Below, one piece after another: positions 56,120 to 63,345 of a stretch of DNA of 64,000 nucleotides. This DNA is from Clostridium sp. GTDB lineage: Bacteria > Bacillota > Clostridia > Clostridiales > Clostridiaceae. Under the pieces are notes generated by a model. That model worked only from the letters and a program-made list of their open reading frames with translations. It did no database searches and was not told the DNA's origin. How positions within the stretch are numbered: the stretch's first letter is position 1; every line of letters starts with the position of its first letter. The position numbers and the translations under genes are program-made. The stretch is from positions 4,201 to 68,200 of the forward strand of contig NZ_DATCQT010000090.1 of assembly GCF_036569345.1 (NCBI RefSeq), read 5' to 3'.

Positions 56120-56300
56120 GTCATGAAACCTTAGCTTCACGACGAAAAAACTACTTAAATATATTATTGCATATATTTAAGTAGTTCCATACCCTGGCTA
56201 TCGCCAAGTTTTTTCATCTCTCTTTTACCAAATTTTTCAACTCTCCAACCAAACTTCTCATCTGCTTAATTCGCATCAGATGTCCCATCTTCGCCTTGCC
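56120..56300 (-). repeat. Dispersed repeat family copy (24-bp hairpin, terminator-like stem, ~110-bp conserved tract)
   Basis: gtcatgaaaccttagcttcacgac; aactacttaaat/atttaagtagtt; ctggctatcgccaagtttttt..aaacttctcatctgcttaattcgcatcagatgtcccatcttcgcc. Confidence 0.85.
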
Positions 56301-56457
56301 ATAGAGCTAGATATAATAAAACAAATTGATATAAACACCTATTTAGCTATTTATATACTTGTATTACCCTTCATACAATAAAATATGTTATAATTTTATA
56401 TGAAGTAGTTAAACATTATAATAGTTATATTAAACCGAAACATACAGGAGGATATAT

Positions 56458-56988
56458 ATGAGCAGTAAAAATCTACAGGATTTTTTGAATAAGAATACAG
56501 AAAAAGAATCTAAAGAAAATAGCATAGATTGGGAAGTCCAAAAAAAATTTTGGTTACAGTCAGTAGACCATTTTTATTCTGATGTAAAAGAATGGCTTAA
56601 ACCATTTATAGATAAAAATCAAGTTCGAATAGAATTTAAAAATATTACTTTGCAAGAAGACCATATTGGAAAATATGATATAGACGCTATGTACATTTAT
56701 ATTTCAAATGAAAAAGTATTTTTTGAACCGATTGGCACTTTATTAGTTGGAGCCCGTGGAAGAATAGACATGAATGGAAAAAATGGAGTAACAAAATTTT
56801 TGTTAGTGGGTGAAAGTTCAAAAGGATTTAAAATTACCGTTACAGTAGGGAATGAAACACCTATAAAGACTGAAGATACAACTAAAGAAAAATTGGTTTG
56901 GAAGATATCTACACCACTTCCAAATATAAAGTTTTTAACATTAAATAGTGATTCCTTTTCAGACGCTCTGTTGAGCATAATAGAATGA
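56458..56988 (+). CDS. Hypothetical protein, first gene of a coupled pair
   Basis: 176-aa ORF, RBS caggagg; ATGA overlap with the next gene. Confidence 0.8.
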   Translation: MSSKNLQDFLNKNTEKESKENSIDWEVQKKFWLQSVDHFYSDVKEWLKPFIDKNQVRIEFKNITLQEDHIGKYDIDAMYIYISNEKVFFEPIGTLLVGARGRIDMNGKNGVTKFLLVGESSKGFKITVTVGNETPIKTEDTTKEKLVWKISTPLPNIKFLTLNSDSFSDALLSIIE

Positions 56989-57536
56989 TATCTAAAGTAT
57001 TAGATTCAAGAGGCAGTCAAGGTATCGGTGATATTATTAATTTGTTTAATATATATAAACAGGCTATATATCAATATAAGAATAAAATAGTATCAAATTT
57101 GAGTTCCAATATTAGCTTATCAGAAGAATTTTTAGGTTCATCATCTGAAGAGATAAATGATTATTTCAATTATGCTTATGAAGAATTAGAAAATGTCACT
57201 TGTTTAAGCTTATTATCTGCAGTAGAAGCAAAATTAAGAATAGATTATCAAAGCCGAGTTTATGAGAAAAAGAAGGATACGGTAAGCAGAAAATTCAGAG
57301 ATATATATAAAGAAAAAGGCGGTAAACCTCCACTCGATGAAGGCATCCTAAAAGCCTGGATGGACTCTTATCCAGAGTTAAAACATATCATAAACGACTA
57401 CAAAAGTGCTTTAAATTATCGAAATTGGTTAGCTCATGGTAGATATTGGGTACCCAAATTAGGTAGGAAATACGATATTGATATTATTTATTCTATCTCA
57501 GATAATATAATTAGTAATCTAATAAGTATTAATTAG
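56985..57536 (+). CDS. HEPN-like protein (putative RNase)
   Basis: Helical; LSLLSAVEAKLR N-motif and YRNWLAHG (R-x4-H). Confidence 0.7.
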   Translation: MISKVLDSRGSQGIGDIINLFNIYKQAIYQYKNKIVSNLSSNISLSEEFLGSSSEEINDYFNYAYEELENVTCLSLLSAVEAKLRIDYQSRVYEKKKDTVSRKFRDIYKEKGGKPPLDEGILKAWMDSYPELKHIINDYKSALNYRNWLAHGRYWVPKLGRKYDIDIIYSISDNIISNLISIN

Positions 57537-57669
57537 GTATTATAATCTATTTAATTTAAAATCAGTTAACTACATCAATATATGTACTTTACTAATTTCA
57601 AATAAAAAGAAAAAATCAACAGGTTGTTCCGAATATTCATTTATACTACGCTTTAGCCATTAGAATAAT

Positions 57670-57740
57670 GTCATGAAACCTAAACTTCACGACAAATAAA
57701 CTACTAAAAATAAATTTCAGTAGTTCATCCTCACCTAGCT
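57670..57740 (-). repeat. Dispersed repeat family, short copy
   Basis: gtcatgaaacctaaacttcacgac followed by aactactaaaaataaatttcagtagtt. Confidence 0.8.
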
Positions 57741-58240
57741 ACATTCTCTGATTCCTTTTATTAGGTGGCTGGCTCGTCACCTTAAAAGTTATTTTCCTTC
57801 TTTAATTAAGTTATGCGACAATACCAAAGCGCATTTTTCTGTAACAATTTCAGAAATATGTTTTGTTGCATATCCTAACCAAGCTATTATCAATATTGGG
57901 AAAAATAAAAAAAAGTCTTTCATGATTGCCCCCCTTTAAAATTATATTATCTATATAATATAAAGATTCTAATTATTTTTTTCATATTCCGTTTCCGCCT
58001 AAATTACTAATATTCTTGTTGATTAACCGTTTACACCTACCATACAAATCTTTAAAGGAACAATGAGATACTTGTTTCATTCAATTTGTCCAACTATAAA
58101 ATGTATTTCCTCATCTCCTTAAAATAATTATATCACTAAGTAATAATTCTATTTAAACTATCGTATTCTATTTTCTGCTATATTTCAACAAATAACGTCA
58201 TTCTAGAAAATAATACTAAATATACCCTATCAACTTTAAC

Positions 58241-58509
58241 TTATACTCTAGCCAACATGTTCTTTATACTATTAACAGATGATTCAACAAATGAAGAGAA
58301 TGTAGATTCACCATATAATTTCAAATATTCCTCATCAAATTCCTTCCTTTAGGATTGAGCAGTTCATAAATTATTCTACAAATTATTACTTCATCCGATT
58401 CAATATTAGCTATATCAAATATATTAAAGTATCCTCCGGTCTTTTGATAAATCAAATCATACTTTTTTGATATAGCCGAAATCTGTGCTAATAGAATCTT
58501 TATATTCAT
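58241..58509 (-). pseudogene. Internally deleted PD-(D/E)XK-family nuclease gene
   Basis: N-terminal KKYDLIYQKTGGYFNIF..DEVIICRIIYELLNPKG then a frameshift into EFDEEYLKLYG..MLARV*; catalytic middle absent. Confidence 0.55.
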
Positions 58510-58757
58510 AATATCCCCCTCCTACACTGAATCATTATATTTTCACTACTACACGCTACTTCATCATATATGCCACTAAAGTTTTCATTATATTTTAAAG
58601 TCTGAAGATACTTCATAAATGGTACTTTTAAATCATCTCTTTTTAAAGCAAACTCTACTGTGGCTTCTAGAAACCCTAATTTATCACCTACGTCATATCT
58701 TCTTCCTTCAAATACATATGCTACCTCTAACTTTTTGTTTCTATTTTTCCACATCAT
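58506..58757 (-). pseudogene. galU: C-terminal fragment of UTP-glucose-1-phosphate uridylyltransferase
   Basis: AYVFEGRRYDVGDKLGFLEATVEFALKRDDLK is the GalU C-terminus; N-terminal ~230 aa missing. Confidence 0.8.
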
Positions 58758-62069: not shown

Positions 62070-62159
62070 AATTTTTTCTCCTTTTTTATAATTCTTTATA
62101 AATTATTGACGTAAAATTATAAGTCTAACCCAAATATAAAATATCACCAAATTTTATTT

Positions 62160-62312
62160 AATAAAAAAGCCACCGAAGTATAATTCTATACATTTCAGTA
62201 GCTTTCCTAGCTGACTATTGCCATTTCTTTTGTATCTATTCTTTTCACTCAACTTTTCATCCCAACCTCTTTACCTTAAATTCGCATCAGATATCCCACC
62301 TTCGCTTTGCTA
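62160..62312 (-). repeat. Dispersed repeat family copy upstream of the RAYT-comM-dprA operon
   Basis: caccgaagtat..atttcagtagc, ctgactattgcc, aaattcgcatcagatatcccaccttcgc. Confidence 0.7.
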
Positions 62313-62549
62313 ACAGAAAAAAGGATGCCTATAAGACATCCTTTCCATCAATTGGGATTTTTTTTGTTTTACTTGGTGATACCCTCTCACCAATTCATAC
62401 TTATATTATAACGTATACTTGATAAAAGTAAACACCCTTTAACCTTTTCTATTTTGAATTTAAAGGGTCTATTAATAACTATAAGTAATACGATGTTTTA
62501 ATAATACATTATTTTTTTACAAAATCCCTATAATGAATATTCTATAAAC

Positions 62550-62775
62550 GACGTGAAACCTAAACTTCACCACAAAAAAAACACTGAAATTATATTTCTA
62601 TAAATTTCTGTAGTTCTCTCTTCTGGCTATCACCAAGTTTTTTGTCTCTCTTTTACCAAACTTCTCATCTGCTTAATCCGCATCAGATATTCCATCTTCG
62701 CCTAGCTTCCGCGTTGGTCGTTCACCCCACGTTCACGACCACCGGGTATCCTTGGCAGACTAGGGTTCGTATCGC
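62550..62775 (-). repeat. Dispersed repeat family, longest copy, with an extra GC-rich hairpin
   Basis: gacgtgaaacctaaacttcaccac; ctggctatcaccaagttttttgtctc..catcagatattccatcttcgcctagcttccgc; ggtcgttcaccccacgttcacgacc at 62716-62740. Confidence 0.85.
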
Positions 62776-62792
62776 TAATAACTTGTAATGAT

Positions 62793-63053
62793 CTATTTTA
62801 CGGCTCTGCTTTCATTAATTACATTGCCTATCTTATTAATTGTTCCCTCTGTATGTGCAACTTTATAAGTAATATTATCAATCTCTGCTTTATGCGTAGC
62901 ATTACTATGTTCAATAGCATTTACAACAGAAAATATTTCATCCTGCCTTATTTCCATATTTTTTTGTCTTTCGTCCATGCCCTTTTGACTTTCTTCTATA
63001 ATATCTAATTTCTTCATCAACATTTCGAACATTTTCTTTGTTTCATTATCCAT
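62793..63053 (-). CDS. Small coiled-coil protein, paralog of 38097-38336 with a 7-aa insertion
   Basis: MDNETKKMFEMLMKKLDIIEESQKGMDERQ...; ~310 bp including upstream DNA duplicated. Confidence 0.8.
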   Translation of the reverse strand: MDNETKKMFEMLMKKLDIIEESQKGMDERQKNMEIRQDEIFSVVNAIEHSNATHKAEIDNITYKVAHTEGTINKIGNVINESRAVK

Positions 63054-63265
63054 TCTAAATCACCACCACTATTTTAATTTTCAAGTGAATTAATTATAAC
63101 ATCTTCAAACTTCTTTATCAACCTATAATAATTTACATCTTGCCAATATAACTTAAAGATTCATTTGTCTTTCTTATACTTTATTCTACTGTAATATCAT
63201 AACTTTATGATTTATAGATATCACATTAATTTTTCATTTACACTACTTATAACCATTAAAACAAT

Positions 63266-63345
63266 GTCATGAAACCCGCCCTTCACGCCCCAAAAACCAT
63301 AAAATATATACATTAATATTTTGTGGTTTCCTCCTTGCTACCGTT
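63266..63345 (-). repeat. Dispersed repeat family, short copy
   Basis: gtcatgaaacccgcccttcacgcc followed by aaccataaaatat/atattttgtggtt stem. Confidence 0.7.

Follow-up and report, generated by a model that had tools for sequence, protein, structure and literature searches.

Hairpin-bearing repeat units in a clostridial gene-cassette array next to a RAYT-ComM-DprA operon

According to our analysis, the short hairpins found in a 64,000-nucleotide stretch of a Clostridium sp. genome (here called the window) are the tail ends of a larger folded repeat of 170 to 300 bases, which separates small toxin-antitoxin and nuclease genes in one-directional arrays in many Clostridium species, next to an operon encoding a RAYT, a nuclease acting on single-stranded DNA. 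The arrangement looks like an undescribed, integron-like way of storing and shuffling genes. Our preferred reading, to which we assign a probability of about 45%, is that of an integron-like cassette array whose units are single-stranded DNA (ssDNA) substrates of the HUH enzyme, with DprA and ComM assisting recombination, a mechanism that is inferred from sequence alone.

The analysis started from a sequence-only reading of the window, whose observation was confirmed. The imperfect 24-mer hairpin GTCRTGAAACC-N4-CTTCACGAC matches at 56120, 57670, 62550 and 63266, all on the plus strand and with 0 to 2 mismatches, whereas none of 100 shuffles gave any match (0 expected by chance). A fifth copy lies just beyond the window on the same contig (contig C90, position 69963), and the genome holds only three other weak matches, all on short contigs. 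The longer conserved tract was likewise confirmed at 56144-56301, 62574-62777, 62160-62312 and 37928-38089, and we found in addition a truncated copy at about 64554-64662 and a degenerate one across the dprA stop codon at 58720-58848. All copies share one orientation, as had been claimed. However, the sequence ending ttcacgacc at 62716, which had been taken for a variant of the 24-mer, is a different, covarying internal hairpin (GGTCGT..ACGACC) of the long-form unit.

Both the 24-mer and the tract are pieces of one modular unit of 75 to 300 nucleotides, which reads on the minus strand of the window, i.e., the sense strand of the cassettes. A complete unit consists, in order, of a sharp 5' start TAGCAA, one or more covarying hairpins, GCTAGGCGAAGATGGGACATCTGATGCGGATT, an A-rich spacer, AAAAACTTGGCGNNAGCCA, an intrinsic terminator hairpin with a T-run, and, optionally, the 24-mer followed by ATT. 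The 24-mer is therefore not the core of the family but a 3' appendage present after roughly 40 to 45% of units, while the most sharply defined end is the TAGCAA start, which the sequence-only reading had not seen. Each 24-mer adjoins a strong AT-rich stem (z = -2.9 to -7.3). These stems had been described as following the 24-mer, but on the minus strand the order is stem, T-run, 24-mer, so that they are minus-strand terminators that come before it. A scan with a consensus terminator model missed these AT-rich, long-loop stems, which became apparent when each stem was folded individually (z = -2.9 to -8.1 for the window copies).

A mini unit (63263-63340, minus strand) comprises a TAGCAAGG start at 63340, a terminator stem with T-run (63335-63290), the 24-mer (63289-63266), and ATT. 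It is followed by a cassette (62793-63121, minus strand) with a near-consensus promoter (TTGATA-17-TATAAT, 63121-63093) and an 86-amino-acid (aa) coiled-coil-like open reading frame (ORF) (63053-62793), of which a paralogous copy lies at 38097-38336 and homologues occur in the arrays of other species. Next comes a long-form unit with a type B 5' module (62547-62777, minus strand), which starts TAGCGA at 62777 and contains the internal hairpin GGTCGT..ACGACC (62740-62716), then the tract, the terminator, the 24-mer (62573-62550), and GTT. Directly upstream of the RAYT gene lies a short-form unit (62160-62312, minus strand), which starts TAGCAAAG at 62312 and has the tract and terminator but no 24-mer. 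The operon itself, on the minus strand, comprises the gene of the RAYT-type Y1 HUH nuclease (61470-62069), a ComM/YifB paralogue (59948-61486), whose housekeeping copy, 47% identical, is on another contig (C18), and a DprA paralogue (58846-59946), whose TAG stop codon is the first triplet of a degenerate unit remnant (58720-58848, minus strand; TAGGTGAAGATGGTACAGCTGATGCG).

Below the operon, a second mini unit (57667-57741, minus strand) has a TAGCTAGG start at 57741, the terminator, the 24-mer (57693-57670), and ATT. Two overlapping ORFs of 176 and 183 aa lie on the opposite strand between two units (56458-57536, plus strand); neither has a Pfam hit, the second has a weak match to the Csx1 C-terminal (HEPN-type) region (E = 0.0023), and both are absent from related arrays. 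They are followed by a short-form unit (56117-56301, minus strand) with an altered start TGGCAAGG, the tract, the terminator, the 24-mer (56143-56120), and ATT. The lower edge of the array is marked by a collapsed partial duplicate of the operon (55580-56084, minus strand), made of a RAYT N-terminal piece fused to an internal comM piece. An outlying unit (37928-38089, minus strand), downstream of the second copy of the 86-aa ORF, has a TAGTAAAC stub followed by the tract and terminator and a degraded 24-mer.

When we inspected other genomes, the unit was found in 22 of 24 genomes of the same genus and in 0 of 16 genomes from other genera, and the unit motif is restricted to this GTDB genus. 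Two of the same-genus genomes (G019 and G022) each carry 24 copies over about 20 to 23 kb, and all 115 hits are co-oriented within their contig. Copies sit almost entirely at one locus per genome, with 8 to 24 copies; in the 4.7-Mb genome of the window there are 8 24-mer-like sites and about 15 units, nearly all on one contig end or on short repeat-broken contigs. A unit follows almost every cassette. The units separate one- or two-gene cassettes encoding Phd-ParE, Uma2, Rpn-like PD-(D/E)XK nucleases (PDDEXK_2/Transposase_31), Schlafen-like ATPases (SLFN_AlbA_2), and Fic, as well as an AbiEii fragment and DUF3990. Cassette content differs between species: only the operon, the units, and the 86-aa ORF are shared between the window and the five related loci compared, and the same Phd-ParE cassette sits in different contexts.

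Covariation supports the folding of the unit. Three helices are 93 to 98% paired, with compensatory changes, whereas slid controls were about 40 to 50% paired and none of 500 shuffles reached the observed values. The P1 stem after TAGCAA changes as ACAGAAA/TTTCTGT, ACATAAA/TTTATGT, CCAATAAA/TTTATTGG, and ACAGAG/CTCTGT, and many G-U pairs occur only on the sense strand. The terminator helix is 97.7% paired, 8 of its 10 pairs show compensatory changes, and the T-run is conserved. In the 24-mer, G.T outnumbers A.C 10 to 3, but it shows sequence conservation with a fixed T.C mismatch rather than compensatory change, so its folding is not proven. A coding role of the tract was rejected since, although one frame reads ..GEDGTSDAD*, no frame is conserved across copies.

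These features also suit a rival reading, which we consider doubtful, whereby the units are mainly RNA elements, each a structured 3' untranslated region plus intrinsic terminator, possibly a 3'-UTR-derived small RNA or an insulator, shared by selfish cassettes in a hypervariable island whose arrays grew by ordinary homologous recombination and duplication between units, with the RAYT operon as one more passenger. The 3' half of the unit is plainly an RNA terminator, so RNA-level selection alone could explain much of the covariation, and the alternative of a conserved noncoding RNA, raised in the sequence-only reading, is not excluded. Moreover, units lie directly after stop codons, an A/G-rich spacer precedes the terminator, the two cassettes examined for this (the 86-aa ORF and the Phd-ParE pair) have their own promoters, and arrays persist without the operon. 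However, this reading does not explain the sharp DNA-level 5' junctions described below, the conservation of TAGCAA across genera while the rest of the unit diverges, or the recurrent flanking of RAYT-ComM-DprA, and the 24-mer and ATT lie after the terminator, where little RNA is expected. Searches of the window and of 78 kb of arrays against Rfam 15, at gathering and permissive thresholds, found no family. The only hits were an unrelated c-di-GMP-II riboswitch and a sub-threshold group II intron fragment in G022 (D1-D4), which turned out to be the truncated 5' end of a genuine intron inserted after a unit's terminator. That intron targets terminators and is multicopy in the window's genome, and its similarity stops before TAGCAA, so that a derivation of the unit from a group II intron was rejected and the hit deemed incidental.

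The 5' end of the unit behaves as a specific site. Truncated units, genes, and an intron fragment abut TAGCAA, and stubs occur such as TAGCAAACAT joined directly to TAGCAA and a 27-nucleotide type B stub joined to a type A start. Sixteen long open frames (at least 50 codons) end exactly on the unit's TAG. Partial copies of the operon end at variable points, one of them, in Haloimpatiens, exactly at a new TAGCAAAC. At the 3' end, ATT after the 24-mer is 87 to 97% conserved, and beyond it the sequences fall into cassette-specific leader classes; we looked for a fixed motif at the left boundary of cassettes and found none beyond this ATT. No conserved target sequence precedes TAGCAA, only a weak preference for AT or AG, which differs from IS200/IS605. 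The sense strand has positive GC skew in 12 of 13 loci, although this measure is confounded by the orientation of the genes.

The operon is a second, non-housekeeping RAYT-ComM-DprA set, paralogous to the housekeeping comM-dprA, and lies inside or at the end of arrays. In the more distant Clostridiaceae C. carboxidivorans P7, C. bovifaecis, and Haloimpatiens, it is flanked by diverged same-strand repeats that still begin TAGCAA, and TAGCAA[ACG]C occurs 56 times on the operon strand and 19 times on the other strand in 270 kb, against a background of about 10. However, some genomes have arrays but no close RAYT or ComM paralogue, for example G016, G003, G009, and G015, and the operon is therefore not needed to keep an array. 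The dprA stop codon within a unit-like sequence, and a TAGCAA motif within about 45 nucleotides of the end of the DprA match in several species, led us to consider that the repeats are att-site copies left by serial integration of small islands into the 3' end of dprA by a tyrosine or serine recombinase acting in trans. We judge this very unlikely since units lie on both sides of the operon, cassettes are as small as 0.3 to 2 kb and carry no integrase, the tract has no conserved reading frame, arrays exist where the dprA paralogue is absent, and no tyrosine recombinase lies on the array contigs: a PF00589 search of G000, G019, and G022 found 9 to 17 hits per genome, none on contigs C90, C10, or C4. 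The unit also had no match in plasmid and phage collections.

The RAYT-class protein scores 86.4 bits against NCBIfam NF047646 (cut-off, 80), matches Pfam Y1_Tnp (E = 2.5e-17), and has the HUH and YxxxNP motifs (HVHLL and YIHLNP), while a PDB sequence search gave no hit at E <= 0.01. As in a REPtron, in which a RAYT (TnpA-REP) gene is flanked by REP/BIME or REPIN sequences, the gene is flanked by its presumed substrates, each with a conserved short 5' motif next to a hairpin whose sequence varies between species. REPs, however, are 20 to 40 nucleotides long, number in the hundreds, are dispersed genome-wide, and often lie in inverted pairs, whereas here the units are 170 to 300 nucleotides long, number 8 to 24, sit at one locus, and share one orientation, with genes between them and ComM-DprA in the operon. 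The published RAYT surveys that we consulted (PMC6006769, PMC5581495) do not mention such an arrangement, and our literature searches found no description of the array or of a RAYT-ComM-DprA link.

The Y1 transposase fold, the strand-specific action expected on the lagging-strand template, and the lack of inverted terminal repeats also recall the IS200/IS605 family and its PATE derivatives. Both ends of the unit are defined, with the covarying P1 hairpin near the left end and, in those units that have it, the conserved 24-mer, a putative hairpin without compensatory changes, near the right end. Thus, the unit might be a non-autonomous IS200/IS605-like element (a PATE or MITE), with TAGCAA plus P1 as its left end and the 24-mer plus ATT as its right end, mobilized by the neighboring RAYT and piling up locally among ordinary island genes rather than captured cassettes. 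The single orientation fits the lagging-strand bias of this transposon family. This reading seems unlikely since copies are neither dispersed nor near-identical (70 to 90% identity, not recent), truncated one-ended copies are common and their left parts are not matched by the right parts that nested insertion would leave, there is no conserved target or cleavage tetranucleotide at the left flank, and many units lack the right-end hairpin. The bcr1-type repeats of the Bacillus cereus group are likewise structured intergenic repeats of about 150 nucleotides in Firmicutes with a conserved fold, often in 3' untranslated regions, but those are dispersed MITE-like elements with target duplications and are not arrays next to a RAYT operon.

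Sedentary chromosomal integrons, such as the Vibrio cholerae superintegron with its VCR/attC repeats, and CALINs share with the present locus one-directional arrays of structured repeats of about 60 to 300 nucleotides interleaved with one- or two-gene cassettes rich in toxin-antitoxin and defense-like genes, one locus per genome, content that varies between relatives, and a single folded strand that matters. Here, instead, no IntI tyrosine recombinase lies on the array contigs searched, the units are longer and include a terminator, the two cassettes examined carry their own promoters, unlike integron cassettes, the linked enzymes are a Y1 HUH nuclease with ComM and DprA, and the host is a Gram-positive Clostridium. 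No attC match was obtained from Rfam, and inspection by eye, without a dedicated attC model, did not show the R-box consensus in the units.

The interpretation offered by the sequence-only reading, an integron-like array built by ssDNA recombination on cognate sequences of the HUH enzyme, is thus partly supported. It withstood the three outcomes named beforehand as fatal to it, since the repeats cluster at the RAYT-comM-dprA locus rather than spreading through the genome, gene content between them differs between species, and no Rfam or IS-end family was matched. In the mechanism that we propose, the unit, which terminates the transcript of its cassette, would also be the DNA site on which the RAYT acts. 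The folded sense strand, probably the lagging-strand template, would be nicked immediately 5' of TAGCAA, and the enzyme-linked 5' end would be joined to whatever 3'-OH is available. The dedicated DprA and ComM paralogues would then load RecA and drive branch migration across heterologous cassettes, using the 170- to 270-nucleotide units as portable homology, with gain, loss, duplication, and reshuffling of cassettes as the result, as in an integron but without a tyrosine recombinase. Our data establish the anatomy, covariation, and strand of the unit, the arrays and their single orientation, the variable cassette content, the conserved link to the operon, and the sharp 5' ends with stubs, whereas cleavage by the RAYT, the roles of DprA and ComM, and the ssDNA intermediate by which the array would be built are inferred.

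It is possible, although we hold this only tentatively, that the arrays represent a previously unrecognized class of gene-cassette platform in Gram-positive anaerobes, a functional analogue of the integron in which a domesticated HUH (RAYT) nuclease, helped by dedicated DprA and ComM paralogues, captures, duplicates, and reshuffles promoter-bearing toxin-antitoxin and defense cassettes at folded single-stranded TAGCAA units. This would also give RAYTs outside the Proteobacteria a concrete cellular role. To our knowledge, integrons have not been described in Firmicutes, and the cellular role of RAYT domesticated transposases remains open. Here, a RAYT is tied to the ssDNA-recombination proteins ComM and DprA beside a one-directional, species-variable array with structured, strand-specific boundaries, which makes it possible to ask, in culturable, non-pathogenic strains such as C. 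algoriphilum DSM 16153 and C. carboxidivorans P7, what these HUH enzymes cut and whether a non-integrase system can run a cassette array. If confirmed, it would be a new route of gene shuffling and of defense-gene storage and would also supply a set of portable terminator and recombination modules.

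The pattern of the 24-mer imperfect hairpin matches at 56120, 57670, 62550 and 63266 with 0 to 2 mismatches, while no shuffled sequence gave any match, so that the observation made in the sequence-only reading holds. In the whole 4.7-Mb draft genome there is one more copy just beyond the window on the same contig, and only three other weak matches exist, all of them on short contigs. The conserved tract is found at 56.1, 62.5, 62.1 and 37.9 kb, and a profile search adds a truncated copy just beyond the window end, at about 64554-64662 in window numbering, a degenerate copy across the dprA stop codon, and copies on four other contigs. 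All copies on a contig share one orientation. The proposal that these repeats are sequences cognate to the HUH enzyme, or a conserved noncoding RNA ending in a terminator, in an integron-like array, is instead supported only in part, as described below.

Read on the minus strand, the order of the elements is tract, stable AT-rich hairpin, T-run, and 24-mer. The hairpins fold far better than shuffled sequences (z = -2.9 to -8.1). Across 57 copies from 16 genomes, the terminator helix is 97.7% paired and 8 of its 10 pairs show compensatory changes, while two further helices, AGATG-GGA-CATCT and UGGC-N4-GCCA, are 93% and 96.5% paired, respectively. None of 500 shuffles reached the observed values, and slid controls were about 40 to 50% paired. 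Many pairs are G-U on this strand and would be C.A on the other; the folded strand is therefore the sense strand of the neighboring genes. A purely RNA-level role of the units, accompanied by ordinary recombination, is the main rival to the interpretation that we prefer, although we deem it unlikely. Between two of the units, at 62320-62432 (-), a promoter-like site (TTTACT-16-TATAAT) is followed by a roughly 75-nt stretch with a hairpin and its own terminator, which has a subthreshold match to the Rfam 6A RNA (30.5 bits, E = 0.01). A cyclic-di-GMP-II riboswitch aptamer (68.5 bits, gathering score 53.5) at 34304-34387 (+), upstream of plus-strand sequence, is unrelated to the repeats.

Alignment of copies from related genomes shows that the tract recognized in the sequence-only reading is the 3' part of a larger unit, which begins with TAGCAA. 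Long forms, of about 270 nt, continue with a long hairpin whose stem changes in a compensatory way (ACAGAAA/TTTCTGT, ACATAAA/TTTATGT, CCAATAAA/TTTATTGG, and ACAGAG/CTCTGT), and further stems follow. However, since these 5' modules are heterogeneous, their covariation was judged from individual folds and alignments rather than from a formal test. Short forms run straight from TAGCAAGG into the tract, whereas mini forms consist of TAGC[AT]AGG plus the terminator. In the window, units start at 63340, 62777, 62312, 58848 (degenerate), 57741, 56301 (altered), and 38089. Just upstream of the mini unit at 57741, a 44-aa hydrophobic ORF (MKDFFLFFPILIIAWLGY...) with a ribosome-binding site lies at 57795-57929 (-) and may be a small membrane peptide or a type I toxin-like gene. 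The 24-mer follows the T-run in roughly 40 to 45% of complete units and is itself followed by a conserved ATT (87 to 97%), after which the sequences fall into a few cassette-specific leader classes. It has a fixed T.C mismatch and shows more G.T than A.C (10 to 3), but it has no compensatory changes. The sequence at 62716, taken at first as a variant of the 24-mer, is a separate internal hairpin of one long-form type, and it does covary.

The unit is found in 22 of 24 genomes of the genus and in none of 16 genomes from other genera, although most genomes are drafts broken at the repeats. Two relatives carry 24 copies each over about 20 to 23 kb, and all 115 hits in 21 sequences are co-oriented within their contig. 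Copies lie almost entirely at one locus per genome. Between the units lie one- or two-gene cassettes, mostly co-oriented with them, which include Phd-ParE, Uma2 endonucleases, PDDEXK_2/Transposase_31 (Rpn-like) nucleases, Schlafen/AlbA_2 ATPases, Fic, an AbiEii fragment, DUF3990, and small coiled-coil proteins. C. carboxidivorans has a two-ORF cassette that we read, by eye, as a DUF4160/DUF2442 pair. Against the five related loci compared, only the operon, the units, and the 86-aa ORF are shared with the window. The Phd-ParE cassette occurs three times in one genome and once in another, with different neighbors and different flanking units. No tyrosine recombinase lies on the array contigs of the three genomes searched, and we regard it as very unlikely that the repeats are att-site copies. 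Elsewhere in the genome that contains the window (G000), on a 3.7-kb contig (C116, 840-1364 and 1819-1842), a tyrosine recombinase gene lies next to a perfect palindrome related to the 24-mer (GTCGTGAAACTTACATTTCACGAC).

The RAYT encoded at the array passes NCBI's RAYT model and keeps the HUH and Tyr motifs. The ComM and DprA encoded here are second copies, since the housekeeping pair (47% and 38% identical) is on another contig and is present in every relative. The array-linked DprA, encoded at 58846-59946 (-), passes the canonical DprA model and also scores strongly against PADLOC's model of ShosA (E = 8.7e-64), the DprA-like partner of the Shosta defense system. The paralogous operon is always found in or beside an array, whereas some arrays lack the operon. 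It recurs in named species (C. algoriphilum, C. algidicarnis, C. carboxidivorans P7, C. magnum, C. bovifaecis, and Haloimpatiens) and in a Cellulosilyticaceae MAG. In several distant species our profile finds no units; however, in the three that we inspected, C. carboxidivorans P7, C. bovifaecis, and Haloimpatiens, the operon is still flanked by same-strand repeat arrays, whose sequence has diverged but which start with TAGCAA and contain hairpins, with a terminator evident in P7 and Haloimpatiens. TAGCAA[ACG]C occurs 56 times on the operon strand and 19 times on the other in 270 kb, against a background of about 10. A second RAYT paralogue (52% identical) lies in the window at 32135-32650 (-) without comM or dprA, and about 4 kb away, at 28248-28291 (-), there is an isolated terminator plus the start of a 24-mer-like sequence.

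Several features point to a site-specific DNA event at TAGCAA. Immediately 5' of this motif we find earlier units cut at many different points, truncated genes, and a truncated intron. Short stubs also occur, such as TAGCAAACAT/TAGCAA and TAGCAA/TAG/TAGCAAACAT/TAGCAAACAG, where slashes mark the junctions, and a 27-nt stub of one unit type joined to the start of another. The matching right-hand parts that nested insertion would leave are absent, and a locally accumulating PATE-like element is deemed an unlikely explanation. Sixteen long open frames (at least 50 codons) end exactly on the TAG of the unit, and 29 more ORFs end within 40 nt of it. On the opposite strand, a primase-like ORF with a CHC2 zinc-finger motif and then a Toprim-like ..PDNDESGK.. 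motif, at 63806-64000 (+) and continuing beyond the window to about 64560 in window numbering, is cut off exactly where a truncated unit begins. As an incidental observation, an intact group II intron with a reverse-transcriptase ORF, inserted right after a terminator on contig C67 of G000 (2191 to about 100, minus strand), is multicopy in this genome, being found also at the ends of contigs C165, C148, C193, and C185, and a 98%-identical 165-nt 5' fragment of it sits after a unit's terminator in another species (genome G022, locus L013, 14556-14720). Partial copies of the operon that begin at its upstream end and stop at variable points occur in three genomes, and one of them ends exactly at a new TAGCAAAC. 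Partial, decayed duplicates of RAYT-ComM-DprA inside the arrays of C. algoriphilum (locus L039, 6200-8452) and Haloimpatiens (locus L056, 13998-14734) are like the collapsed copy at 55580-56084 of the window. These patterns fit a fixed 5' end joined to arbitrary 3' ends, which a 5'-phosphotyrosine HUH intermediate would produce, although this is an inference.

In architecture, the array is closest to sedentary chromosomal integrons, but it fails defining features of theirs, because there is no IntI on the array contigs and the cassettes examined have their own promoters; no attC match was found in Rfam. With REPtrons it shares the enzyme class, but it fails the criterion of short, dispersed, high-copy REP sequences, and it lacks the fixed target sequence and the dispersal of IS200/IS605 elements. 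We found no description of it in Rfam, in plasmid or phage collections, or in the papers searched.

According to the mechanism that we propose, the unit terminates each cassette's transcript, which is the step shown by its structure, while the steps that follow are inferred from sequence. The folded sense strand of the unit would be the substrate of the RAYT; GC skew in 12 of 13 loci suggests that this strand is the lagging-strand template, although the skew is confounded by gene orientation. DprA and ComM would then promote RecA-dependent exchange, using the units as homology arms, a last step which rests on the established knowledge that DprA loads RecA on single-stranded DNA and that ComM drives branch migration through heterology (bioRxiv 10.1101/147660 and 10.1101/2024.10.21.619469). 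We put a probability of about 45% on this reading.
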